Shown here in pieces: positions 3,600 through 17,491 of a stretch of 64,000 nt of DNA. Origin of the DNA: an uncultured Chloroflexia bacterium (GTDB lineage Bacteria; Chloroflexota; Limnocylindria; Limnocylindrales; CSP1-4). The notes beneath the pieces are model-generated. The model worked only from the letters and a program-made list of their open reading frames with translations. It was not told the DNA's origin and searched no databases. Location of the stretch: assembly GCA_963833225.1 (NCBI GenBank), contig CAWHXD010000008.1, positions 960,001 through 1,024,000 on the forward strand, given 5' to 3'. Numbering within the stretch: position 1 is the first letter of the stretch; every line of letters starts with the position of its first letter. The position numbers and the translations under genes were made by a program.

Positions 3600-4034
3600 T
3601 CAGTTGCCGGACGAGGACCCCGCGCCGGGAAGGCGCGCCAGCGCGCTCCGGTAGAGGTCCGAACCGGGGGCAAGCGCAACCGCGAGCCGCAGGTGCGTCC
3701 GGGCTTCATCGTTCCGGCCAAGCCGCTTGAGGCACTGCCCGAGCGCGAAGTGCCCGTATGGCGATGACGGATCGACATCCAGCAGCGCCTCGAACGTCTC
3801 GCGCGCCGAGTCGTGCTGCGCGGAGTTGAAGTACGCGCGCCCGAGCGCCTCGAGGATGGATCCTTTGCCCGGCTCCAGGCGCGCGGCCCGCGCCAGGACC
3901 ACGGCCGCCTGCGCGTGATGGTGGCGGGCCAGCAGGCCTGAGCCGCGCTGGAGCAGCTCGTAGGCAGTCTCCGGGCTGCCGGCGGTGGGATCGGGTCGTC
4001 CCGGATCGGAGGGCGGGCTGTCGTCGGGCTCCAT
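3600..4034 (-). CDS. Tetratricopeptide repeat protein
   Basis: TPR-like helices (ILEALGRAYFNS, YGHFALGQCLKRLGR). Confidence 0.8.
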   Translation of the reverse strand: MEPDDSPPSDPGRPDPTAGSPETAYELLQRGSGLLARHHHAQAAVVLARAARLEPGKGSILEALGRAYFNSAQHDSARETFEALLDVDPSSPYGHFALGQCLKRLGRNDEARTHLRLAVALAPGSDLYRSALARLPGAGSSSGN

Positions 4035-4128
4035 GCCTCGATGCTGCCACGGATGCCCCGACCACGCCGGTACGATGGCCGGACGTCCGGCGCGACCCGG
4101 ACCGCCGACCATCTCCACCGGAGCCCGC

Positions 4129-5307
4129 GTGTCAATCCTCCGCCTGTCCGTCGCGCTCCTGTTCGTCCAGGCTGGCTTCCACGCCTATACGGCGACGATG
4201 CCGCTCGCGCTGGCGCGTGCCGGGACGCCCGACGCCACGGTCGGGCTGATCATGGGCGTGGCCGCGATCGTCCAGATCCCGGTGGCCATCGGGGGTGGGC
4301 GCCTGCTCGACCGGTTCGGCGGCGCCCGCCTGTTCACGGCCGGTGGCATCGCCTACCTCCTCGCAACCGGCGTCATCCTCCTGCCGGGTGTCGACATCTC
4401 GGCGTCGCTGGCCCCGTTCGTCCTGGTCCGCGTGCTCCAGGGGGCGGGGATCGCGCTCGCCTCGCCCGCGGCCCTGTCGATGGTGCCACGGCTGGTGCCG
4501 GGGGCACGCGTGGCCGCCTCGCTGTCCTATGTCGCCGCCGCCCAGAACCTCACGCTCGTCCTCGCCCCGCCGCTCTCGCTCGCGATCCTCGATGCTGCGG
4601 CGCTCGACGGCGTCGCCGCGGCGGTCGTGGGGGTCCTCATCGCCGGCATCGTCCTGGGGCAGCGCCTGCCCCTCCGCACGCCCGAGCCGTCGGCGACCGA
4701 GCTCGCCGCGGCCGGCCGCCGCTACGGGATCACGTTCCGTCGCGAATGGGCGATCCCGCTGCTGATCATCGTCACCTACGTGGCCCACTGGGGCGCCGTG
4801 ACGGCCTACCTGCCGATCCGGGCGGAGCAGGCGGGCGCGGACATCGGGCTGTACTTCGCCGCGGACGGCATCGCGATCTTCGCGATGCGGTTCCCCACGG
4901 GCTGGCTGGTGGACCGGGTCTCGTCGCGGGTCCTCATCCTGGCCGGCGCCGGGATGACGTTGGCCGCGCTCGGGCTGCTGCTGCTGCCCCTCTCCACGCC
5001 ACTCCTGGTGGTCGCGGGGCTGCTGGGTGGCGGGGGCGGGGGAATCGTCATGACGCCGGTCACCGTCGAGCTGTCGCGACGCTCCGCGGATGGGGACCGG
5101 GGCTCAGCCTTCTCCCTGTTCTCCGGCGGGATCGCGACCGCGATGACGCTGGGCAGCGTTGGCGGGGCGCCGATCGTGGCCGTGTTCGGGCTATCGGCCG
5201 CGCTCGTCGCCGGCATGGGATTGATCGCGGTCTCGATGGCACTGGCGGTCTCGGACCCCTCCCTCGCGGGCACCGGTCGTGGTCCTCGCGTCGCAGCCGC
5301 GGCTTGA
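4129..5307 (+). CDS. MFS transporter
   Basis: About 12 hydrophobic segments, motif A-like GRLLDRFG and GWLVDRVSSR; GTG start inferred. Confidence 0.88.
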   Translation: MSILRLSVALLFVQAGFHAYTATMPLALARAGTPDATVGLIMGVAAIVQIPVAIGGGRLLDRFGGARLFTAGGIAYLLATGVILLPGVDISASLAPFVLVRVLQGAGIALASPAALSMVPRLVPGARVAASLSYVAAAQNLTLVLAPPLSLAILDAAALDGVAAAVVGVLIAGIVLGQRLPLRTPEPSATELAAAGRRYGITFRREWAIPLLIIVTYVAHWGAVTAYLPIRAEQAGADIGLYFAADGIAIFAMRFPTGWLVDRVSSRVLILAGAGMTLAALGLLLLPLSTPLLVVAGLLGGGGGGIVMTPVTVELSRRSADGDRGSAFSLFSGGIATAMTLGSVGGAPIVAVFGLSAALVAGMGLIAVSMALAVSDPSLAGTGRGPRVAAAA

Positions 5308-5318
5308 CGGAACGACGG

Positions 5319-6341
5319 TCAGGCGTCCCGCCAGCCCGCGAGATCGATGGGCTTGAGCCGCGGGCTCTCGGTCCGCCCGGGAATCCGGCCCCGCTTGGCG
5401 ATCGGCGTGCCGTCGATCTCCTTGATGTCCCCCGTGAAGTCGATCGGGCTCGCGCCGGAGATATGCGTGCCCACGGCGAACGAGTCGACGGGCGCCCCCT
5501 GCTCCTTGAAGTGGCGGATGCGCTCGGGGTTCAGGCCGCCGGAGACAGTGATCGTGACGTGCTGGAACCCGGCCTGGTCAAGGCGCGCCCGGACCTCGGT
5601 GACCAGCGCCGCGGTCACGCGCCCGCGCTCCGACGGCGTGTCAAGGCGGATCCCGTACAGCCTGTCGCCCAGGGCGCGGGCAACCCGGAGGGCCTCCTCG
5701 GCCTCGTCCTTGAACGTGTCCACGAGGACGATCCGGGGCACGTCGGGGGGCATGTCGCGGTCGAACGCCTCGGCCGCCCGGACCGTGTCACCGAAGATCA
5801 GCACCAGCGAGTGCGGCATGGTCCCGGTGGGGTTGAGCCCGGCGAGCCTTGCGCCCGCGGGCGTCGATGCCCCGACGCAGCCGCCCACGATCGCCGCGTA
5901 GTCGAGCACATCGGTGATGTCCGGGTGCACGTGCCGCGCCCCGAACGAGATGACCGGCTGCGGTGCGGCGGCCTCCACGCACTGGCGCGCCGCGGTCGCC
6001 CAGCCCGTCGACTGGGCGAGCATGCCCAGCATGGCCGTCTCGTACAGGGCGAAGGCGCGATAGCGAGCACGAATCCGGAGGACGACCTCCTTGGGCGTGA
6101 TGAGGTCACCGTCCGCGAGCGCCTCCACGACCGCCCCGGGCTCGTCGGCCAGGACGTGGCCGATGAGGTTGGTCGCCTCGCCCATGCCGCACAGCACGGC
6201 GTCCTCGCGGCCGAAGACCTCCATCGTGACCACGGGATCGATGCCCTCGCGGTCGAGGATGCTGCTGGCCCGGGCGAAGTAGACGTCGGCGGTCGCGCCG
6301 GACAGGATCTCGTGCGACGGGCGGGTGCGGGCCAGGCCCAT
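5319..6341 (-). CDS. pncB: Nicotinate phosphoribosyltransferase (Thermoplasma-type)
   Basis: TADVYF, SFGARH, GTMPH (phospho-His), LVDTF, IRLDT, VSGG, KRG. Confidence 0.9.
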   Translation of the reverse strand: MGLARTRPSHEILSGATADVYFARASSILDREGIDPVVTMEVFGREDAVLCGMGEATNLIGHVLADEPGAVVEALADGDLITPKEVVLRIRARYRAFALYETAMLGMLAQSTGWATAARQCVEAAAPQPVISFGARHVHPDITDVLDYAAIVGGCVGASTPAGARLAGLNPTGTMPHSLVLIFGDTVRAAEAFDRDMPPDVPRIVLVDTFKDEAEEALRVARALGDRLYGIRLDTPSERGRVTAALVTEVRARLDQAGFQHVTITVSGGLNPERIRHFKEQGAPVDSFAVGTHISGASPIDFTGDIKEIDGTPIAKRGRIPGRTESPRLKPIDLAGWRDA

Positions 6342-6375
6342 CAGGCGACCCCCGCGGTCGAGGCGACGTTGAAGC

Positions 6376-8556
6376 TCACGTTCCGTCCGCTCCCTCGTCC
6401 CCCGGCGCCGGCCCGCCGGCAGGCTCAGCCGGGGGTCCGTCAGCCGGGAGTGTAGCGTACGGCCCGCCGGGCTCCGGGGCACGAGCGGCGGGGTGACCGA
6501 TGGCCGGTGCCGGCCGCCGGCGGCTCCGCCGGACCAGGGCAACCGCGACGAGCAGCAGGACCAGGACCACCAGGGCCGCCAGGAGGGCCGCGACGATCGC
6601 CTTCGAGCGTCCGGCGTCCGGGGCGGCGGCGATGAGCGCGACCACGCCGGCGGCGGCCGTCCGGGCGGCATCCAGGTCGCCGGCCTCCCAAGCGGCACCC
6701 GCAGTCACCACGCCGGCCGCCGGATCGGTGCCATCGAGACCCCAGCTCGTGAGCCAGTCGCGAGGCGCGTCGACAGCATCACCCGCGGAGGCGATGGCCT
6801 CGAGAGCATCTAGGGTCCTGGCGGCCTCATCGACGACCGCGTTGACCTCCGCCTCGCTGCCGGCGTCCTGGTAGTCGGCCTCGAGGACCGGCCCCGGGAC
6901 GAGCCCCTCGTCGGCGGCAAGCGCGGCGATCGTGTCCCGCGTCGCGAGCACCCGCTCGGCCCCGTCGATGATGTCAACCGCGTCGCCGAAGTCCCACTCG
7001 TCCAGGGCGCTCCGCACCGCCGCGGGCGGAGCCCAGCTCGAGCCCTCCTCCACGAGGACCGAGTAGCGAGCGAGCGCCGCCTTCCGCGCCGGCAGCAGCG
7101 CCGCGTCGCCGGCGCCCAGCGCCCATTGCTCCATGAGGTCGGCGATCGACCGCCCGGAGGTGGCCCCGGTTGGCGGCGGCGCGGCCTGCTCAGCGAGGTC
7201 GAGGAACCGGCGCCAGTCGTTGGGCAGCCGGGAGGGCTCCGGGGCACCCTCGCCCGGGTACGCCGTCGTCCCGGCGGCCGCGGCGGCGAACACCTCGCGC
7301 ATCCCCGGCTCGCCCACCCGCGCCACGATGCGGCGCACCAGCGTCCACGACGCCGCGTACCCATATGTCTCCCGGTCGCCGGCTTCCTGGTCCCGGATCG
7401 CCGCCGGCGGCGGCCAGTCGTTGAGGGCGAATGCCGCCGCGTCCGTCCGGGCCACCTTGGCCGGCCCGGGATGGCCACGATCGTCCGCCTGGAGCGCCAG
7501 GGAGGCGTACTCGTCGGCCAGGCCTTCGGTGATCCAGCGCTCGGTGAACAGCGAGCCGTTGAACCAGGCGTGCGACGCCTCGTGGATGATCGTGAGGTCG
7601 TCCAGGTCCTCGCTGATGGTGATCTGGTCCGTCTCCGGGTCGTAGAAGCCCGCATACCCCTCGAGCAGCGGCGTGTGCACCTCGGTGACGACGAGCGACC
7701 CCTCGACGGGCCAGGGCAATCCAATCTGGGTCACGAGCTCGGGCAGGCCGTCGCGAAGGAGGCTGCTGACGCGGCGACGCCACTTGGTGTCCTCGGGCCA
7801 GGCCCGGATCACGACGTTCTCGCCGTCCTCGATCGCGAGGCGGTCTGAGGTCAGGGCCGCGTCGTTGGTGGCATTGACCTGGACGTACCAGGTGAGCGGG
7901 TCGATCGTCGTCGCAGACCAGACCTGGAGGCCATCGGTGCCGTGCTCCGTGTCCAGCTCGCTGCCCGCGGTCTCCACGCGGAAGTCGCTGGGGACCTCGA
8001 TCCGTACCTGGCCTAAATCGCCGAACGCCCAGGCGATGAAGGTCGCGAACGCCGGTCCCACGCGCACGTCGCTCTGGGAGCGAGGACGGCCGGCGGGCAG
8101 CTCGAACGACAGCCGCAGCCGCTCGGTCTCGCCAAAGTAGAGCTTCTCGCCGAACAGGACGGTGACCAGCCGATAGCCCTCTCGATCCGCGGCGCGGACG
8201 CGGAGCTCCGATCCGGCGCTGGTGGCGCTGAACCGACGCGCCTCGGGCTGCACGCCAAGGTTGAGGCCGTCGTAGAAGTAGCGGGTCACCCCGCCGGCGG
8301 TGGTCTGGTTGGGCTTGCGATTGACGGCGGTGAGGTTCACGACGACCTTCACCTTGCGCGCCTCGGGATCCACGATGTACCGGGTGTCAGCCGTGATCTC
8401 GAGGTCATCCGCGGCGCGAGCCACGGCAGGGCCGAGGAACCCGGGCAGTGGCAGACCCGGCGCGGCCGCGGGCAGGAGCGCGCCGGCCAGGCCGACGAGC
8501 AGGGCGAGCAGCGTGGCCGCGGTGGCGCGGCGCCCGGTCCGACGCACGGCCGTCAC
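6376..8556 (-). CDS. Secreted, C-terminally membrane-anchored gluzincin (M1/MA-clan) metallopeptidase-like protein
   Basis: N-terminal signal peptide, HEASHAWF...WITEGLA (HEXXH plus downstream E), C-terminal TM helix followed by an Arg cluster. Confidence 0.75.
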   Translation of the reverse strand: MTAVRRTGRRATAATLLALLVGLAGALLPAAAPGLPLPGFLGPAVARAADDLEITADTRYIVDPEARKVKVVVNLTAVNRKPNQTTAGGVTRYFYDGLNLGVQPEARRFSATSAGSELRVRAADREGYRLVTVLFGEKLYFGETERLRLSFELPAGRPRSQSDVRVGPAFATFIAWAFGDLGQVRIEVPSDFRVETAGSELDTEHGTDGLQVWSATTIDPLTWYVQVNATNDAALTSDRLAIEDGENVVIRAWPEDTKWRRRVSSLLRDGLPELVTQIGLPWPVEGSLVVTEVHTPLLEGYAGFYDPETDQITISEDLDDLTIIHEASHAWFNGSLFTERWITEGLADEYASLALQADDRGHPGPAKVARTDAAAFALNDWPPPAAIRDQEAGDRETYGYAASWTLVRRIVARVGEPGMREVFAAAAAGTTAYPGEGAPEPSRLPNDWRRFLDLAEQAAPPPTGATSGRSIADLMEQWALGAGDAALLPARKAALARYSVLVEEGSSWAPPAAVRSALDEWDFGDAVDIIDGAERVLATRDTIAALAADEGLVPGPVLEADYQDAGSEAEVNAVVDEAARTLDALEAIASAGDAVDAPRDWLTSWGLDGTDPAAGVVTAGAAWEAGDLDAARTAAAGVVALIAAAPDAGRSKAIVAALLAALVVLVLLLVAVALVRRSRRRPAPAIGHPAARAPEPGGPYATLPADGPPAEPAGGPAPGDEGADGT

Positions 8557-10607
8557 CGGGCCGGGCCGGCGTCGGGCGACAACGGCTTAGCCGGACGCCG
8601 GGCCGGCGGCCGGCGGCCGCGCCGCCGGTTCGAGACCACCGCGGAGCTCAGGACCAGCACGGTGGCCAGCGCGGCGAGGGCGAGGAGCGCCCGTCGGCGA
8701 CCCTCCTCCCAGGCCACCGTCCACGAGCGGTGGGCACGATCAGCCGCGGCGAGCGCGACGTCCAGGTCGCCAGCCTCCAGCGCCTCGCGCGCTCGAGCCA
8801 CGTCCTGGTCGGGATCCTCGCCCAGCATCCCGATCCGGCTCAGGAGGTCATCGTCGGGTGAGCGGGCCTCCTCCGCTCGGCGGAGGGCGAGGATCGCGGT
8901 GCGCTCGGATTCGGCCCGGGCGCTGGCCTCGGTCATCAGGCCGCTCTCGAACAGCCCCTGCATGACCGGGGGCAACCGCAGCCCCTCGCTGGCCGCGAGC
9001 TCGTCTCCGGCGTTCCGCTGGGCCAGCACCGTCCGGACATCCGCCATGAGCGTCTCGGCGGTGGTGAAGTCCCAGGCCCGGAGCGCATCGCGGATCGCCC
9101 GTGGCAGGCGCCAGTCACCGGCGACGGCAAGGGTCCGCTCGTACGAGACGCGTGCCGCTGCCCGCGCATCAAGCTGTGGGGCCTCCGCCGGCGTGACGAC
9201 CAGCTCACGCCACAGTGGCGCGAGGTCAAGGCCGGACCGCTCCTCGAACAGGTCCAGGAGGTTGCGCCAGTCCGCGGCCCCGGCCACCGTCTCTGGAGAC
9301 GACGACGTCGCGGCGGCCCCGGGTGGCGGCTGGTAGGCCCCCACCCGGGCTGACGCGTCCGCCCAGACGGCCGTCAGCACGTCTGCGCCGACCAGGCTCG
9401 CCAGCTGGGTCGCGAGCTGGTAGGACGCGGCACGGGCATAGGCGTCGGCCGGGGTCCGTGCTCCGGTGCCCCCGGTCCAGGTGTCGAGCGCCAGGGCGGC
9501 CGCCTCGGCCTCCGGGGTCATCACCGGCGGATCGGCGGGCTCACCAATCTGCCGGGAGGCCCGCAGCGCGTAGTAGGTGGCAAAGCCCTCGTTGGCCCAG
9601 CGATCGGCCAGGAGCGCGCCGTTGAACCACACGTGCGCCATCTGGTGGACGGCGACGCCGTGATCGGCCCAGTAGGCGACCTCGATCCGTCGATCCGTCG
9701 GATCGAACATGGCGGCATAGGTGTCCGCATCCCGGCTCACGGACTCGGCGACCGTGACCGGCTCGCCGGCGGGCCACGGCAACCCGATCTCCGCGCGCAG
9801 GGCCGGCAGGGCCTTCCGGAGCAGGGCCTCCATCCGCTTCGACCACGCCCGGTCGTCCGCCCACCCCTGGAGATCCAGGTCCGCCTGCCGGTCCCCAACC
9901 GGGATCGTGATCGACTGGCCGCTGAACACGGCCGGCCGCTCGGCCGTGACGTAGGCGAAGTACGTCAGCGGACTGGCGATCGGCCCGCTCTCGAGCACCA
10001 CGCCGCCCGTCCCCGCGATCTCCCGTCGCGCAAGGTCACCCGACTCCACCGCGACGTCCCAGCCGCCGGGGAACTTGACGGTGACGGTGCTGCCCTCGGC
10101 GCCCGTGGACGCGAACGCCCAGACCGGCAGCGTCACGAGGCTGGCGCCCACCCGGACCTGCGGGCTTGCCGTCTTCCCGGTCCCGGGCAGGTCGAAGGAC
10201 AGCCGGAGCGACACGCTCTTGCCGCTGTAGAGGCGCGCCCCGAAGTCCAGCCGCAGAAGCGTCGACTTGCCGGTCCGCGTTGAGACCCGGGCGTGGGCGC
10301 CGGGGGCGCCGGTCAGCCGGGGATTGACCGCGCCCGGCTGCACCGCCAGGAACGCATGGTCGAAGTAGAACCTGCGGGTGCGGGTCTCCGTCGTGCGGTT
10401 GCGTGCCTCGATCGCGACCGCCACGCCAACGCGGCCATCGTCGGGCCGGATGGTGTAGACGGCGTTGGTGACCATCGTCAGGTCGCCGGACGCGGCCCGT
10501 ACCACGCCGCGGCCGCCCAGGCCCGACGGCAGGGACGGGGCAACGATCACGAGCAGCAGGAGCGCCAGCATCGTGGCGGCCGGCACCTGCCGCCGTCGGC
10601 TCGTCAC
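8553..10607 (-). CDS. Paralog of the adjacent gluzincin with a degenerate active site (HQMAH)
   Basis: Collinear similarity to the 6376-8556 product (YFYD/FYFD, VRVG, IGLPWP, WFNG.L...RW..EG.A, DWR..LDL, W..P.A.R.AL..WDF); GTG at 10607 overlaps the upstream stop. Confidence 0.75.
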   Translation of the reverse strand: MTSRRRQVPAATMLALLLLVIVAPSLPSGLGGRGVVRAASGDLTMVTNAVYTIRPDDGRVGVAVAIEARNRTTETRTRRFYFDHAFLAVQPGAVNPRLTGAPGAHARVSTRTGKSTLLRLDFGARLYSGKSVSLRLSFDLPGTGKTASPQVRVGASLVTLPVWAFASTGAEGSTVTVKFPGGWDVAVESGDLARREIAGTGGVVLESGPIASPLTYFAYVTAERPAVFSGQSITIPVGDRQADLDLQGWADDRAWSKRMEALLRKALPALRAEIGLPWPAGEPVTVAESVSRDADTYAAMFDPTDRRIEVAYWADHGVAVHQMAHVWFNGALLADRWANEGFATYYALRASRQIGEPADPPVMTPEAEAAALALDTWTGGTGARTPADAYARAASYQLATQLASLVGADVLTAVWADASARVGAYQPPPGAAATSSSPETVAGAADWRNLLDLFEERSGLDLAPLWRELVVTPAEAPQLDARAAARVSYERTLAVAGDWRLPRAIRDALRAWDFTTAETLMADVRTVLAQRNAGDELAASEGLRLPPVMQGLFESGLMTEASARAESERTAILALRRAEEARSPDDDLLSRIGMLGEDPDQDVARAREALEAGDLDVALAAADRAHRSWTVAWEEGRRRALLALAALATVLVLSSAVVSNRRRGRRPPARRPAKPLSPDAGPAR

Positions 10608-11155
10608 CCGTCGCCGCCCGGCGCGGGCTCCAGGATCTCGGCGAGGTCGGCCGCGAAGCGGGCGATCAGGCGCACCCCGGGACCACCACCGTCCATCGGC
10701 GCGGGGGCGTCCGTGGACCAGCCTCCGGCCTTCAGCCACTCGCAGGCCTCGGCATGGCACCGGTCGGCCACGGCCAGCTCACGGGCGAGCGCAAGCCCCA
10801 GGGCCTCGGCGCTTGCCTGGGCGATCGGGATCTCGGCCATGAGCAGCGGCCGCTCATCCTCCCCGGTCGAGAACTTCACGAACGGCAGCTCGTCGTTCCA
10901 GCGCAGCAGCTTGCGGTAGGACTTGCGGAACGAGTCGTTGATCGGCGGCGCGAAGTGCGCCAGGCAGATCAGCGCGAGCGAGGGATCGAGGATCAGCGTG
11001 ACCCGCAGCCGGGCCCGGCGGCGTCCATCGAGGGCGAGGTCCCACGACGTCACGCGCTCGCGATCGGCGCGCTCGAGGGGCGCCAGGCCCAGCTCGGTGA
11101 GCCAGGCTTCGACATCCGCCGGGGCACAGGCGGACGCCCGGGGGGCGGTTGACAT
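10604..11155 (-). CDS. YbjN-like / type III chaperone-fold protein
   Basis: Pattern WDL.LDG...VTLI...YRKLLRWNDELPFVKF typical of YbjN domains; leaderless TAGACT-N7-ATG. Confidence 0.65.
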   Translation of the reverse strand: MSTAPRASACAPADVEAWLTELGLAPLERADRERVTSWDLALDGRRRARLRVTLILDPSLALICLAHFAPPINDSFRKSYRKLLRWNDELPFVKFSTGEDERPLLMAEIPIAQASAEALGLALARELAVADRCHAEACEWLKAGGWSTDAPAPMDGGGPGVRLIARFAADLAEILEPAPGGDG

Positions 11156-11232
11156 GGCGGGCAGTCTATCCCGAGCGGCTGCCACGGACCCGCGGTGCCA
11201 AGGGGAGCAGGAGCACGCCGCGGAGGGCCGGG

Positions 11233-12561
11233 CTATTCGCCTCCAGCCGCGGTCGCGCGCTCCGGTGGCTCGTCGGCGTCATCGCGGAGTGCCGCCTTGG
11301 CCGCCCGGGCCTTGCGCTCGACGGTTCCACCCGAGCGCACGACGCGAGCCCCGAAGTCCGAGGACCGGACCTTGTCGCCGACCTTCACGTTGCGGCCGAG
11401 GCGCGTCCCGCGAGGGATGACGGACTGCTTGCCGACCACCGTGATCCCTGTGTTGAGGCGGCCCGGCTCCTGCTTGTTGGGCGTGTCCAGGTCCGGCCCG
11501 TCGCCCACGATGGCCCCCTGGCCGACCACGACCTCCTTGTCCAGGATCGCCCGGTCCACGACGGCGCCGGCCCGGATCACGGTGTCGAACATCACGATGG
11601 AGTCGCGGACCACGGCCCCCACGTCCACGCGCACCCCCGGCGAAAGCACGCTGTTGACCACCGTCCCATCGATGACGCAGCCGTGCGAGATCATCGACCG
11701 GTGGACCTGGGCGGTCGCCCCGATCTTGGCCGGAGCCCGCTCCTCCGACCGCGTGTGGATGAGCCACTCCCGGTCGTACAGGTCCAGCTCCGGGTGATCG
11801 ACGAGGAGCGCCATGTTGGCCTCCCAGAACGACTGGATCGTGCCCACGTCCTGCCAGTAGCCGGCAAAGCGGTGTCCGTACACCCGGGCGCCGCCCTCGA
11901 GCATCGCGGGGATGACGTCCTTGCCAAAGTCGCGGAGCCCCTCGTCCAGCCATCGCTGGAGCGCACGCTTGGAGAACACGTACACGCCCATGGACGCCAG
12001 GTCGCTCTTGGGCTGCCTGGGCTTCTCCTGCCACTCGGTGACCCGGTCCTGGTCGTCGAGCGCAAGCACGCCCATGCGTGTTGCCTCTGCCAGCGGGACC
12101 CGGCGCACGGCGATCGTGACGTCCGCACGCCGCCGGCGATGCGCCGCCACGAATGGCTGGTAGTCCATCTTGTAGATGTGGTCGCCCGCGAGCACCAGCA
12201 CGATGTCGCCGCCACGCTCCACGACGTTGAAGTTCTGGAGCACCGCGTCCGCGGTGCCGCTGTACCACTCGGCCACCCGGCCGCGCTTGATGTACGGCTG
12301 GAGCATCCGCACGCCGCCCGTGGTGCGATCGAGGTCCCACGGCCGACCCTGCCCGATGTGGTCGTTCAGCGACCGGGGGTTGTACTGGGTGAGCACGACG
12401 ACGTTGTCGTAGCCGGAGTTGACGCAGTTCGACAGCGTGAAGTCGATGATCCGGTACTTGCCACCGAACGGGACGGCGGGCTTGGCCCGCACGGACGACA
12501 GGATCGACAATCGCTCGCCCTCGCCGCCCGCGAGGATGACCGCGATCACGGGCCTTACCAA
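11233..12561 (-). CDS. glgC: Glucose-1-phosphate adenylyltransferase
   Basis: [73 protein letters not shown]; TTG start with GGAGGG RBS. Confidence 0.97.
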
Positions 12562-12654
12562 GCGTCGTCCCTCCGAAGTGTCCGGTGGTGGCCTCGCATC
12601 GATCCTAGCACCGGGCGGTGACCGATCGGTTGGTGCCCCTGCGAGGCGGACGCA

Positions 12655-14013
12655 CTAGGTGAACAGCCGCGGGTTCACGAAGCTGCCGTTGAACTGGACC
12701 ATCCAGTGGAGGTGCGCTCCCGTGGAATGCCCGGTGTTGCCCTCGTGGCCGATCACCTGCCCCTGCTTGACCACAGACCCGGTGTGGGCAGGGCAGCCGG
12801 GGGTCATGTGCGCGTACCAGGTCGTCAGGTTCGAGCTGTGCGCAATGATCACGATCCACGCCGGGTCGGCGCCGTCCGCGTAGTTCCAGCCGCAGTACAG
12901 GACCCGCCCCGCACCCGAGGCCCGGACCGGGGTCCCGTAGCGCGCAACGATGTCGATCCCGTTGTGGAAGTGGGCACAGCTGCCATACGGCGGTTCCCAG
13001 GAAAAGCCCGTGCAGCCAAAGTCCTGGCTGATCGTCCCGGCCATCGGCCAGACAAGGGTGCCGTTGTACTGCGACGGGATGTTGCCCGCGTGGTACTGCT
13101 CGGCGATGAGCCGGTCGATCTTGCGCTGGAGCGCCTTGCGCGCCGCCGTCGCCTTCGCGATCGCGCGGTGGGCCGCCTGCTTGGTGGCATCGAGCGCGGC
13201 GTACTGGGATCGCTGCTCACGCAGGACCGCCTCGACCGACTTCTCGAGCTCCTTGAGCCTGGCCTTCTCCTTGCGCAGCTCAGCGATCCGCTGGTCGAGC
13301 TTCTGCTTCTGGACGCGCGTCTGCTGCCGCAGGAGGTCCGTCTCGGACCGGGCGGACGCGACCGTCTGGTGGACCTGGAGCAGCGTCGCGCGGTCCAGGG
13401 CGATCTGCTGCGCCAGCGCGCGATCCTGCTCGGCCGCGTCGAGCTGCGAGCTCATCGCGGTCAGCATGTCGGAGAACGAGGCGCCAGACAGGAACACCTC
13501 GAGGAGGGACGTCCGCTCAGCCTCGTAGGCGTCGCGGATGCGGTCCGCGAGCGCGGCCTTGCGCGCGCCCAGCTCGTCGCGCTTGGCGGCTTCCTGCGCC
13601 TCGATGCCGGTCAGCTGGACGGTCAGGTCCGCGAGGGACGCGACGAGATCGTCGTAGGACGCCTTGACCTCGGCGATGTCGCTCTGCATGGCGGAAACCC
13701 GCTGGCGGGTGGACGCGAGGTCCTCGGTGATGCCCTGCAGCTCGTCCTGGGTGCTCGCGATCCGGCCCTCGAGCCGGTCCTGCGACGCGTTGAGCGACGC
13801 GACCAGGTCGCGCTGCTGCTGGATCTTCCGCTGGAGGTCCTTCTGCTGGGCGCGGGCGTCAGCAAGCTCGTCGCCGTACGCCGGCCCCGGGGCCACGACG
13901 GGCGCGGCAAGCACGGGCAGGAGCAGCGGGACCACGAGCAGCGCGGCGAGGAGCCGGGTACCGATCGTCCGGCGGGACCTCGGGAACCTGTGCGCGATCG
14001 AAGGGCGGGTCAA
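12655..14013 (-). CDS. Coiled-coil plus M23 family peptidoglycan endopeptidase (EnvC/NlpD-like)
   Basis: Signal peptide, long coiled coil, [20 protein letters not shown] (intact Zn ligands); TTG start at 14013 inferred from GAGGA RBS. Confidence 0.88.
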
Positions 14014-14190
14014 GAAGCTGGCGTCCTCATCTGCGGCGGGGCCCGGTCCGCCGCGCCGTTCGAGACGGGGCAGGCGGCTCGCACTCCACCAGACTGGCGC
14101 CGCCGCGGAGGGCACTCCCGAGACGACCTGAACCGACGTTCACACGGAGTGTACCAAGCGGTCGCAATCGACCGACCGGATGACCCCGAG

Positions 14191-14830
14191 CTACCGGATG
14201 ACCAGGACCGCCCAGATGGCGCCCAGGATCAGGAATGGCCCGTAGGGCACGAACGTCTTGAGCGTGATCCGCCGGGCGGCGAGCAGCACCGCCAGCACCA
14301 CGCCGGCCACGAGCGCCCCGTAGATGGCCCCGTAGACCAGCTTGCAGGGGACCGACCATCAGCCCCACGGAGACGAGCAGCTTGAGATCACCCTGGCCGA
14401 TCGCACCGGCCCCGAACGGGATCGACAGGGCATACAGCCCCAGGGGCACCACGATCGCCACGACCAGCGCGACCGGCAGCACGCCGGGCGGCAGCAGCGG
14501 GTTGGCGCCCGAGAGCGAGTACAGGAAGGCAAGCGGGATCGCCGGCAGGGTGACGACGTCGGGCAGCAGCCGCTGGTCGAGGTCGGTGCCGAGCAGGAGC
14601 ACGAGCGCGACCAGGTACGCGCCGAACACCGCGGTCGGAACCGGATCCGTGAAGCGCAGCGCGGCCCCACCCAGCGCGAACGCCCCGACGACCACCACCA
14701 CCGGCGTCCGCCAGTCGATCGACCGGACCGACCCGTCGTCGTGCGCGGGCCAGCGCGCCGCGATCCGGTCGGCGACAAGACCCCAGGCGCCCCCGAGGAG
14801 CGCGGTGACGATGGCCAGCGGCGTCAGCAC
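14191..14830 (-). CDS. Prepilin peptidase A24 family protein (one apparent frameshift near 14340)
   Basis: TDLDQRLLPD and IGQGDLKL catalytic Asp motifs; C-terminus VPYGPFLILGA..VLVIR* lies in a different frame. Confidence 0.85.
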
Positions 14831-14855: not shown

Positions 14856-16374
14856 TCAGTCCTTCGCGGCGCCGGCCAGCGCCAGCTCGACGAGGGTGGC
14901 GTGGGTCACCCCGGTGGCGCCGCGCGTCGCATACGGGGTCGCCTTGCGGAAGTACGCGCTGCCGCCGATGTCGAGGTGGGCCCAGGGCACCGTCCGGAAC
15001 TGCTCCAGGAACAGGCCGCTCTTGACCAGCGATCCGTCCGGCGTGCCGGTGTTCTGGAGGTCCCCGTACCAGCTCTCCATCTCGGCCATGTAGTCGGAGA
15101 CCAGCGGCAGGCGCCAGTAGCGCTCGCCCGCGCGCTCGGCCGCGGCCTCCACGTCGCCCCACCACGGGATCCGGCGTCGCGAACACCCCGCGTCGACGAG
15201 GTTGCCGAGCGCCCGGCCAACGGCGCCCGTGAGGGTCGCCACGTCGACGATGTGGGTGGCGCCCAGGTGCTCCGCGTAGGTCATCGCGTCACCGAGGATC
15301 AGCCGGCCCTCGGCATCGGTGTTGATGATGTCGACCCACTTGCCGTTGATCGCCGCACGATGTCGCCGGGCCGCGACGCGTGCCCGCCGGGCATGTTCTC
15401 GACCGCCGGGCGCGACCGCGAGCAGCGGCAGCCCGGGCGCCAGGCGGGAGGCGGTGGCGATGGCCGCGATCACGGTGCAGGCACCGGTCTTGTCCATCTT
15501 CATCTCTTCCATCCGGTCGGACGGCTTGATGCTGATCCCGCCGGAGTCGAAGCAGACGCCCTTGCCGACCAGCGCCAGGTGCCGGCCGAGCGCGTCCTTC
15601 GCCGCCCTCGCCGCCGGAACGGATCACGATCATCCGCGGCGGGTTGGCGCTCCCCTGCCCGACGGCGAGGAACATGCCCATCCCAAGCTCGGCAGCTCGC
15701 TGCTCGTCCAGGACATCGATCCACAGGCCGTGAGCCTCGGCGATGGCGCGGGCCTCGTCGGCGAGGACCTGCGGCGAGACGTCGTTGGCCGAGCGGTTTG
15801 CCAGGCGGCGGGCGATGTTGGCGCCCTCGCCGATGATCCGGCCGCGCTCCGCGGCGGCTCGCCAGGTCCGCGGCCGGCGTCGGCGCCCGACCACGAGGAC
15901 CAGCTCGCCCACGGCCGGCGGGGCAGCGTCGGTGTCCTCGCGGTAGATCGCCTTGGGCTCGAAGCCCCCCTCGACGATCCCCCGGACCACGAGCTCCGCG
16001 GCGAGGGCCGCGTCGCCGCCCAGGCCCGCCGCGATGGGATCCAGCCACACGGCCACCACGTGGACATCGCGGTCGATCATGCGGCGGATCGCGGTCGACG
16101 CCAGGCGGCGGGCGGTCTCGCGGTCGAAGGCATCCGCGGTGCCACCGGACACGGCAAGCACCCGCTTGACCCCGACCTCGCCCGGCGCCGCCATGGCCGT
16201 GGCATAGCGGGTTGGCCTGAGCTCGCCGAACGCGGCCAGGGCCCGCAGCTCGCCGCCGGTCCGGCGGTCAAGCTCGTCGAGCAGGCCGGTGAAGGCGGGC
16301 TCGCCCACGACGGGAACGACGAGCAGGTCGGCGGCGACCGCCCACGGCTGCGCAGTGACAACGCGGATCTGCAC
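14856..16374 (-). CDS. pepA: Leucyl aminopeptidase M17 (several apparent frameshifts)
   Basis: VGKGVCFDSGGISIKP, MKMDKTGA, NTDAEGRLILGD, DVATLTGA, WAHLDIGG spread over three frames; GTG start with GGAGG RBS. Confidence 0.92.
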
Positions 16375-16505
16375 GAAGGACCTCCGGTGCGGCTGGCCGC
16401 GAGTGGCGCGCTCGAGCGCGCCTGCGCGGCGGCGGATCTCAGGCGGAACGTTGCGATCGAGTGTAGCGCTGACGGGCCCCCGGACCGGCCGCGCCTGGGC
16501 GCGGA

Positions 16506-17491
16506 TCAGCCCGGCGGCAGCGGTGCCGTGCCGTCGCGGAGCTGCTCCTGCACCTCGAGCGCGTTCGCGAGCGAGCCCCGGCGCCTCCTCGATCGAGATC
16601 ACGGCCTGGTTCAGTCCGCCCTGGGCGACATCGGACATGATCACGATCAGGCCCCGCGTGTCTCCCGGAAGCTGGGCGCGAGCCTGCTGCTCGCGCTCGA
16701 ACGCCTTGCGAACGGGGTCGGTGACCCGGGCGCCCGACTTGATGAGCGCCCGGTACAGGTTCCGCAGCGCGGCGTCGTAGGCGGCATTGCGCTCGAGCCA
16801 CGCGGACAGCGTCGACACGTCCGTGGTCCCGGCAAGGTCGTCGCGAAGCCGCAGCGATTCGGTGATGGTGGCGTCGCTCCGGTCGAGCTGGGCGAGCGCG
16901 TCCTCGTACTGGCCGTCGGATCCCCATCCGGGCGGCCGCGGCGGTCTCCTCGTCATGGCGGGTCAGCAGCGTGGTCAGCCGGGTGGCGGCCAGCGCCCGA
17001 CCCGTGAACGACCCCCAGTCGTCCTCGAGCCCCGTGGCCAGGCCCGAGGTCCCGGCCAGCTGCTCGTACCGGCGGTGCAGACCAGCCGAGACGAACAGCG
17101 CCCAGTCGGCACCGGTCGTAGGGCACGTCGGCAAGCGACGTCTCGAGCGCGTCGGTCAGCGCCTGCACCCTGGCCAGACGGAGGGTGCCATCGGCAATCG
17201 TCTGCCCCAGCGGGTCAGCGTCGCCCGCCACGACCTGGCTGAGTGCCTGACGGGCCGTGGCGCCCAGCGCATCGACCTGGTCCGAGAGCGCCTGGAGATC
17301 CCCGGTCGCGACGTCCAGGGCGGGCTCCATGGCCGCATCGCCGTCCCACGTCAGCTCGGGACGGCCCGGCCGAGCCCGGGGGCTGGCTCATGGTTGCCAC
17401 GACGCCGGCCGTCCCGAACGAGATCAGCACGACAACCAGCGATCCAGGCGAGCCGGATGGCCAGGACGCGCAGGGTTTCGATGACGCCCAC
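16506..17491 (-). CDS. Hypothetical N-terminally membrane-anchored helical protein (frameshifted)
   Basis: Stitched from ORF pieces (LISFGTAGVVATM...RPELTW.GD...YEDALAQLD...GGLNQAVISIEEA); leaderless TACCCT-N7-GTG. Confidence 0.6.

Follow-up and report, generated by a model that had tools for sequence, protein, structure and literature searches.

The window, as the whole analysed stretch of 64,000 nucleotides (nt) is called here, belongs to contig CAWHXD010000008.1 (assembly GCA_963833225.1, positions 960,001 to 1,024,000 of the forward strand) of an uncultured Chloroflexia bacterium of the order Limnocylindrales. Its minus strand carries three joined genes, encoding a YbjN-like protein and two paralogous proteins, B and A, which resemble the M1 aminopeptidases in predicted fold. 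Judged from sequences and structural models, it is fairly probable that A and B represent a lineage-restricted M1-like pair of an active peptidase and a pseudo-peptidase, in which B binds without cleaving and works beside A, and to which YbjN is coupled. In the proposed mechanism, a cytoplasmic protein of the YbjN/TY-chaperone fold would be made in step with B; both A and B would be exported and held by a C-terminal transmembrane (TM) helix, behind which a short basic tail stays in the cytoplasm; A would cleave as a zinc ecto-peptidase, probably an aminopeptidase, and B would stand beside it in the membrane as a natural 'substrate-trap' pseudo-peptidase.

The reading frames of YbjN, B and A are all stop-free on the minus strand, and start and stop codons overlap as GTGA at both junctions (10604-10607 for YbjN/B, 8553-8556 for B/A), exactly as described in an earlier note made from the sequence of the window. 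The same note regarded the two larger products as paralogs of roughly 700 amino acids (aa) with a signal-like N-terminus, a C-terminal TM segment and an Arg tail. Their lengths (see the table) and their identity of 33% over 613 residues (E 7e-68) bear this out, and hydropathy analysis located in each a hydrophobic stretch near the N-terminus with a small-x-small site behind it, a hydrophobic helix near the C-terminus and a tail rich in Arg; signal-peptide cleavage was judged by eye from the small-x-small sites. The tail of A includes a conserved PYATLP motif (consensus of alignment A2). A and B are the only copies of this peptidase type in the genome of the window.

The zinc-binding motifs are HEASH-X14-E in A and HQMAH-X14-E in B; as the earlier note had it, B keeps the three zinc ligands and the catalytic Glu is gone. 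HExxH was found in all of the 111 aligned homologs of A, together with an invariant LLEGYAG element about 26 residues before HEASH (E299 in 111/111) and an invariant Tyr400 (111/111), placed as the catalytic Tyr by sequence position only. It is the presence of HEASH, the third-ligand Glu, Tyr400 and LLEGYAG that points to an active enzyme in the case of A. Relatives with HExxH (HE-type) have LG(E/D)YAG at the strand motif, and B of the window is without that Glu. At the position of Tyr400 the HE-type B proteins (n = 73) contain Tyr in 63 cases, Phe in nine and Asn in one. B of the window retains the zinc ligands and, by its model, the whole fold, with the general base now Gln322, the Tyr now Arg392 and a conserved Glu now Asp388. 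Because these three sites are changed, and the ligands and the fold are kept, we infer that B may bind a peptide or a metal without cleaving it.

The AlphaFold2 models, built from 62-sequence alignments, had pLDDT values of 88.3 (B) and 87.0 (A). According to the models, both ectodomains would consist of three parts, i.e. the β-saddle N-terminal domain and the thermolysin-like catalytic domain that characterise M1 proteins, and a helical C-terminal third whose last helix runs on into the TM segment. Residues 39-473 of B matched E. coli PepN (2dq6; Z 16.8, 356 residues aligned) and residues 49-481 of A matched ERAP2 (7nup_B; Z 17.5, 367 residues aligned) in the VIA comparison; Foldseek (E ~1e-13) returned LTA4 hydrolase, IRAP, ERAP2, the Deinococcus two-domain M1 peptidase and EryP. 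The assignment of A and B to the gluzincins, proposed in the earlier note, is thereby specified as that of paralogous gluzincins with an M1-like fold. With PepN, ERAP1/2, IRAP, LTA4 hydrolase and the Deinococcus radiodurans peptidase they share the N-terminal β and thermolysin-like domains (Z 15-17.5 over about 350-370 residues), and with the M1 aminopeptidases HExxH, a third-ligand Glu set in W-x-N/T-E-G and, further downstream, a conserved Tyr. The mammalian M1 aminopeptidases are membrane-anchored ecto-enzymes, which is also the location predicted for A and B.

Several observations weigh against a closer relationship. The root-mean-square deviation of the fold matches is high (16-19 Å) and the domain arrangement differs; because of this, the match rests on Z and on the aligned length. 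The zinc motif of M1 is HEXXH-X18-E, whereas A and B have the X14 spacing and B is also without the Glu of HEXXH. The GXMEN element is non-canonical, with LLEGYAG apparently in its place in A (judged by sequence), and the C-terminal helical domain is a different one, ending in the TM anchor. Both proteins stay under the cut-off of 27.7 bits of the Pfam M1 family (PF01433) (14.5 bits for B, no match for A). Since the spacing is X14 and not X18, LLEGYAG apparently replaces GXMEN and the Pfam threshold is not reached, A and B are filed, on the strength of the models, as M1-like proteins and not as members of M1. No Pfam family but Peptidase_M1 recurred, weakly matched by 48 of the 62 B and 21 of the 62 A members and always below the cut-off; the best match among these 124 relatives had E 7e-4. 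One relative from genus g4 (L058) passes the threshold (29.3 versus 27.7 bits). Pfam and NCBIfam name neither A nor B, and the sequence search of PDB with the A profile gave nothing meaningful, the best match being CbbX (E 0.86). In the ESM Atlas feature search M1 scored 0.88 and Peptidase_M61_N, the second-nearest named group, 0.85; the latter value, being below 0.9, is a lead only to the M61 glycyl aminopeptidases, of which no Pfam match was found among A, B and their relatives.

The fold matches of B include TAF2 (7edx_B, Z 15.9), a non-enzyme with the M1 fold. Among the fold matches the PDB titles also name engineered Glu-to-Gln M1 enzymes crystallised with substrate bound, namely [E296Q]LTA4H with RSR (3b7s) and an E297Q mutant with Pro-Gly-Pro (6enb), in which the same general-base Glu is substituted as in B. 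Such engineered mutants are inactive. They are products of the laboratory, whereas in B the change arose in nature, is shared by descent within a clade and goes together with additional changes in the active site. The active/inactive subunit pairs of M16 offer another parallel, as a catalytic protein is joined there by a paralog whose catalytic residues are lost; they belong to another clan and fold, and A and B are known here as adjacent genes and as fusions. By a term search of its text, a review on pseudo-peptidases (PMC11266112) mentions neither 'M1 family' nor TAF2.

The distribution of the motif states, as read from alignments, showed how far the Gln extends. The 120 nearest B proteins listed have HExxH in 75 cases, HQxxH in 38 and HGxxH in one; seven are also without the first His. 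In the tree of the 117 nearest B proteins the window lies within one clade of 36 rows, all without Glu (33 HQ and the derived QQ, HG and RQ), and at least four changes away from Glu occurred among these 117. A was found in 80 species-representative loci, always with HE (80/80). The B motif was readable in 73 of them, and was HE in 53, HQ in 10, RQ in 3, RE in 3, HA in 2, NE in 1 and EE in 1; degenerate motifs therefore amount to 20/73 for B versus 0/80 for A. Five changes of motif were counted among the 22 B rows of family f1. The loss of Glu recurs independently, in B and not in A.

It follows that HQxxH has not become fixed among the B proteins, where HExxH prevails (53/73) over HQxxH (10) and other degenerate forms (10), and the strong form of the earlier proposal fails. 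The earlier note had named as the danger to its reading that orthologs usually have HExxH and that the Gln is private or an error; the first part turned out to be true and the second did not, the Gln being clade-wide. A base error was ruled out by identical contigs of two other public runs (X3 and X4) at the Gln codon and by 36 related proteins with HQxxH. Run X1 gave no contig over 9300-10000; among the public runs listed the largest share in a DNA run was 0.19, and no RNA run contained the stretch. The Gln marks a B subclade.

Of the 76 columns conserved to at least 90% in A as well as in HE-type B, just four (Y297, G299, E322 and E388) are changed in the HQ-type proteins (n = 36), and H321, H325 and E340 are retained in 36/36. 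Between the window and genome G098, B is 58% and A 60% identical, and the end branches measure 0.30 for B and 0.26 for A. Since the columns are kept in the HQ group, the ligands are present in all its members and conservation is close to that of A, B is, by its sequence, a maintained protein with a disabled site and not a decaying one. If a pseudo-peptidase is understood as a protein that has lost a catalytic residue, retained its fold and stayed under selection, B shows E322Q, Y392R and E388D, a model of pLDDT 88.3 and 72 of the 76 columns kept.

In a 64-row tree (quick IQ-TREE, LG+G4, unrooted; the other trees were quick ones or FastTree) four groups were obtained: an HQ clade and an HE clade of f4, the B clade of f1, and a clade of A plus a third paralog. 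B of the window groups with B of G098 (support 100) inside the B clade of g1, the other members of which are HE or HA; because of this nesting the Glu-to-Gln change of the window would be recent and independent of that in f4. There the YbjN-adjacent gene, X, has HQxxH in 14/14 loci, and the LGEYAG strand motif is gone from it too; an unlinked paralog has HEAAH in 11/11. This f4 clade with HQ goes far back and occupies the place beside YbjN that B has in the window. The family offers a clean natural series of pseudo-enzyme birth, in which one paralog is always HExxH and the YbjN-adjacent one has lost the Glu many separate times, in some cases together with a zinc-binding His, conservation elsewhere in the protein being maintained.

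The third paralog clade (HELSH type) was met elsewhere in g4 and g9 genomes (L048, L055, L057, L059); its members have long Pro-rich or repeat-bearing cytoplasmic tails, one with repeated 'PRERRRA...PDVAEAA' units, and two of them are degenerate (QALSR, HSLAH). At locus L050 (G074:C1:727000-740000) the A gene is interrupted and spread over three frames (4024-4962, 4880-5323 and 4969-6168), and the motif of the adjacent B, RGIAQ, on a long branch of 0.98, is the most degenerate of all; both peptidase copies of this genome may be decaying. At L094, L111, L130, L155 and L162, which belong to metagenome-assembled genomes (MAGs) with long contigs, B lies in two or three frames beside an intact A, which may reflect real decay or homopolymer errors.

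A and B stand side by side in 73 of 74 species loci with the upstream flank present, and B overlaps A at the junction in 19/70 loci. In at least eight distinct cases (P0243, P0053, P0162, P0170, P0172, P0173, L126 and L129) B and A are fused in frame, and L114 has both motifs in one frame too. The order in the fusions is the B ectodomain, the TM segment, a short Arg-rich loop, the signal-like helix of A, an AxA site and the A ectodomain, which gives a coherent TM topology. Because the linker sequences differ, the fusions do not derive from one sequencing error; they support, as evidence of the Rosetta-stone type, a joint function of A and B. Contact between the two, as in the heterodimer proposed in the earlier note, would go beyond this evidence.

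It may be objected that A and B are two independent ecto-peptidases scavenging peptides, with the Gln of B tolerated, hypomorphic or compensated by another base, with no complex, and with YbjN as a neighbour by old synteny. The HExxH majority among B orthologs (53/73) fits this explanation, as do the many genomes with only one of the two genes, the conservation of the whole block from M23 and glgC through YbjN to pncB and TPR, including genes without an obvious link to peptidases, and the persistence of YbjN after the peptidases are gone. It does not readily account for three conserved active-site positions altered together in B of the window, for the loss of a zinc-binding His in other lineages (RQ, QQ, RE, RG), or for an A that never changes (0/80), and the B-A fusions and the NTGA coupling described below (98/104) are hard to explain by neighbourhood alone. 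We consider the independence of the two proteins unlikely.

Some facts nevertheless count against the active/pseudo-peptidase pair as well. Only B is present in g3 and in parts of g6, g11 and g12, only A stands by YbjN in g9, and most g26 genomes carry only the HQ-type gene. As many genomes carry just one of the two genes, the pairing is not obligatory. Degenerate B of f1 was found only beside A (6/11 versus 0/11), which is non-significant when relatedness is allowed for, the supported independent pairs being two; the naive Fisher p of 0.012 was set aside since it ignores relatedness. Moreover, many loci derive from metagenome bins read from stop to stop, with start codons in the relatives picked by proximity, and in some cases B is divided, possibly through sequencing errors.

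The identification of the first gene as YbjN-like, already made in the earlier note, was confirmed by PF10722 (E 3.1e-9; 37.6 bits, cut-off 22; residues 13-133), and the ortholog in f2 also touches TY-Chap1 (PF22551). Apart from a weak core stretch, the protein has no hydrophobic segment of TM length; the sequence search of PDB with it returned no match. A single YbjN match per genome was present in 87 of the 88 class genomes with a match, the remaining one (G114) having two partial matches on separate short contigs. The stop codon of YbjN overlaps the start of the next peptidase gene (ATGA, GTGA or TTGA) in 34/34 loci of a first set and 64/70 of a second, 98/104 in total; the six exceptions look like split frames and still have NTGA at the YbjN stop. 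The tight coupling asserted in the earlier note is near-universal in these loci, and spans two families whose YbjN proteins are just about 35% identical. With the other members of PF10722 (YbjN, AmyR and DR1245, the TY-chaperones) the protein shares a Pfam match over the cut-off, small size and cytoplasmic character, and it differs from them in its translational coupling to the gene of a predicted exported peptidase.

The strict overlap argues that YbjN is co-produced with the peptidase that follows. The proposal that it is a dedicated export or assembly chaperone of the peptidase translated right after it draws on this overlap, held in 98/104 loci across such divergence, and on the grouping of the YbjN family with the peptide-binding type III secretion chaperones in the parts of the literature consulted (PMC9503650; PMC5398634; PMC3575483). 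It is opposed by the abstract on AmyR, which sees no evidence for a secretion-linked role of YbjN proteins (PMC5398634), and by the gene content of several groups: YbjN is kept beside pncB with no peptidase found in g2 (3/3) and f2 (5/6), and was not found in g4 (0/9), which bears B. These cases also tell against the coupling as part of the proposed pair. YbjN without peptidases and B without YbjN argue against an exclusive relationship, and the retention of YbjN in g2 and f2 means that it has a role for which such peptidases are not needed. The word 'dedicated', used in the earlier note, is therefore doubtful, and the chaperone proposal can be held only tentatively. YbjN might take part in handling the nascent peptidase. 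In the literature on YbjN as a chaperone, as far as titles, abstracts and excerpts extend, a link between YbjN and a peptidase was not found. The overlap, held across deep divergence, ties a family of unsettled function to a defined partner gene and provides a concrete hypothesis for what YbjN does.

The loci with glgC or M23, YbjN and pncB and no peptidase between them are L060, L061, L062, L064, L090 and L092, all from g2 and f2. A connection of YbjN with NAD metabolism through pncB was dropped, since the consulted part of a paper on NAD/ADP-ribose names YbjN just as a chaperone superfamily.

The position next to YbjN could be given another meaning, namely that of a TM peptide receptor, represented by B and by the HQ clade of f4, whose zinc site would hold an extracellular peptide uncut and whose basic cytoplasmic tail would signal to YbjN and/or the TPR protein, A being an accessory enzyme that makes or removes the ligand. 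The HQ clade of f4 would suit this, being old and conserved, having lost several catalytic motifs and being the sole family member in most g26 genomes, and the YbjN coupling follows whichever gene holds the slot (B, A in g9, the HQ gene in f4). Further, g4, devoid of YbjN, has a TPR domain in the frame of the B tail in 2/3 loci, and PYATLP is conserved in the tail of A. On the other hand, the block showed neither an output domain nor a kinase or DNA-binding partner, the tails are short, and the g4 B-TPR 'fusion' was read from stop-to-stop frames of a genome rich in G+C and might represent two separate genes. We regard the receptor as rather improbable. One may speculate further, at still longer odds, that the slot after YbjN holds a TM peptide sensor derived from an M1 peptidase, in which catalysis can be done without and has been given up repeatedly, the dead zinc site captures an extracellular peptide and the basic cytoplasmic tail reports to YbjN and TPR. 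If so, the peptide pool outside the cell would be tied to carbon storage (glgC) and NAD salvage (pncB), and a new kind of bacterial receptor, composed of a pseudo-aminopeptidase and a type III chaperone-like adaptor, would be represented.

The earlier note also assumed a leaderless transcript. A scan of positions 5000-14500 for the two-hexamer sigma-70 consensus gave no site. The hexamer TAGACT lies exactly 7 nt ahead of the YbjN ATG. Of 81 related loci whose YbjN is at least 45% identical, 74 have TA(G/A)ACT 6-9 nt ahead of the start codon, with a spacing of precisely 7 nt in 56; in the f1 loci the remainder of the spacer is variable. In the 19 more distant loci the hexamer was absent from the YbjN start (0/19), and YbjN abuts glgC there, with a Shine-Dalgarno-like run. 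The conserved hexamer supports the reading of a leaderless promoter for the family of the window, and the three-gene operon is probably leaderless.

The stop codon of A and the start of pncB are 34 nt apart. The terminator scan of 5000-14500 gave no terminator-like site, hence none between A and pncB, and pncB comes after the peptidase(s) in nearly all mapped loci; it probably shares a transcript with YbjN, B and A.

The gene order was mapped in 60 loci, and the class was searched in 151 genomes, the tallies of which include the unpublished genomes G087, G096 and G123. The operon of the window lies within an old conserved block of Limnocylindria (Chloroflexota), in which an M23/PcsB-like hydrolase gene, glgC, YbjN, zero to two peptidases and pncB follow each other, with a small TPR gene further on (35 ORFs, i.e. 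open reading frames, for a TPR protein after pncB in the 60 loci). The order YbjN-B-A, which the earlier note expected to recur, is indeed syntenic across many genomes (g1, g8, g13, g10 and part of g6); YbjN-B was found in g3, g11, g12 and part of g6, YbjN-A in g9, and glgC-B without YbjN in g4. The order glgC-YbjN-pncB without a peptidase is that of g2 and of f2, the latter with genomes of 1.0-1.4 Mb, and f4 has glgC-YbjN-X-pncB with the unlinked paralog. The TPR domain that shares an open frame with the cytoplasmic tail of B in g4 (L054:3374-6100 and L058:3367-6162) may be a fusion, or may reflect two genes in one frame.

Peptidases were found in 37/44 genomes of f1, 50/50 of f4 and 1/6 of f2, and in none of the 49 genomes of f3; YbjN was found in 32/44, 49/50 and 6/6 genomes of f1, f4 and f2, respectively. 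In a phylum-wide sample the peptidase matches were confined to f1 and f4 (26/30), with 0 of about 270 other genomes. The family comprises 1524 representative clusters at E <=0.001 in a 50%-identity library. The nearest named relatives of the window proteins come from MAGs assigned to Candidatus Limnocylindrales or Chloroflexota. Limnocylindria is an abundant uncultured class of soil and freshwater. Titles and abstracts of the literature on its peptidases contained nothing on this family, which no profile library names; what is rated as new here, from the sequences, is an M1-like clade with natural active/pseudo pairs. Three loci titled Verrucomicrobiia, Candidatus Dormiibacterota and Patescibacteria (L142, L166 and L169) contain the full YbjN-B-A-pncB arrangement of Limnocylindria type, and their bin labels are probably wrong.

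Table. Coordinates of the three-gene operon, its sequence elements and its neighbours in the window
Feature	Position	Strand	Details
YbjN-like gene	11155..10604	minus	183 aa, predicted cytoplasmic; ORF translation, Pfam PF10722
B, membrane-anchored M1-like pseudo-peptidase (predicted)	10607..8553	minus	684 aa, HQMAH; ORF translation
A, membrane-anchored M1-like zinc peptidase, predicted active	8556..6376	minus	726 aa, HEASH
HQMAH codons of B	9633..9647	minus	Gln codon CAG at 9644..9642
Third zinc ligand of B, Glu340	9590..9588	minus	from sequence
HEASH codons of A	7570..7584	minus	residues 325-329; columns invariant in alignment A2
Third zinc ligand of A, Glu344	7527..7525	minus	column invariant in alignment A2
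C-terminal TM helix of B, then Arg-rich tail	8628..8696	minus	residues ~638-660; hydropathy; model helix 615-663 continues into TM
C-terminal TM helix of A, then Arg-/Pro-rich tail	6517..6615	minus	residues ~648-680; hydropathy
TAGACT, -10-like hexamer	11163..11168	minus	7 nt upstream of YbjN ATG; candidate promoter, putative leaderless transcript
pncB (nicotinate phosphoribosyltransferase)	5319..6341	minus	NCBIfam NF006415, E 8e-128
glgC, upstream neighbour in the conserved block	11233..12561	minus	NCBIfam and Pfam
Small TPR protein, downstream block member	3600..4118	minus	start codon uncertain; Pfam TPR_2, E 1.2e-14

The base composition of the window is about 72% G+C. Upstream of glgC, positions 12655-14830 of the minus strand encode an M23 peptidase and a prepilin peptidase (A24). 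The M23 gene belongs to the conserved block, and its product contains a PcsB-type coiled coil (PF24568, E 2e-5, 24.8 bits, under the cut-off of 27 bits). Further upstream on the same strand (14856-16956), an M17 leucyl aminopeptidase (PepA) is seemingly split across two overlapping frames, 15289..16956 with the N-terminal domain and positions 1-72 of the catalytic-domain profile, and 14856..15512 with positions 101-310 of that profile, which would be due to a frameshift or to an assembly error.

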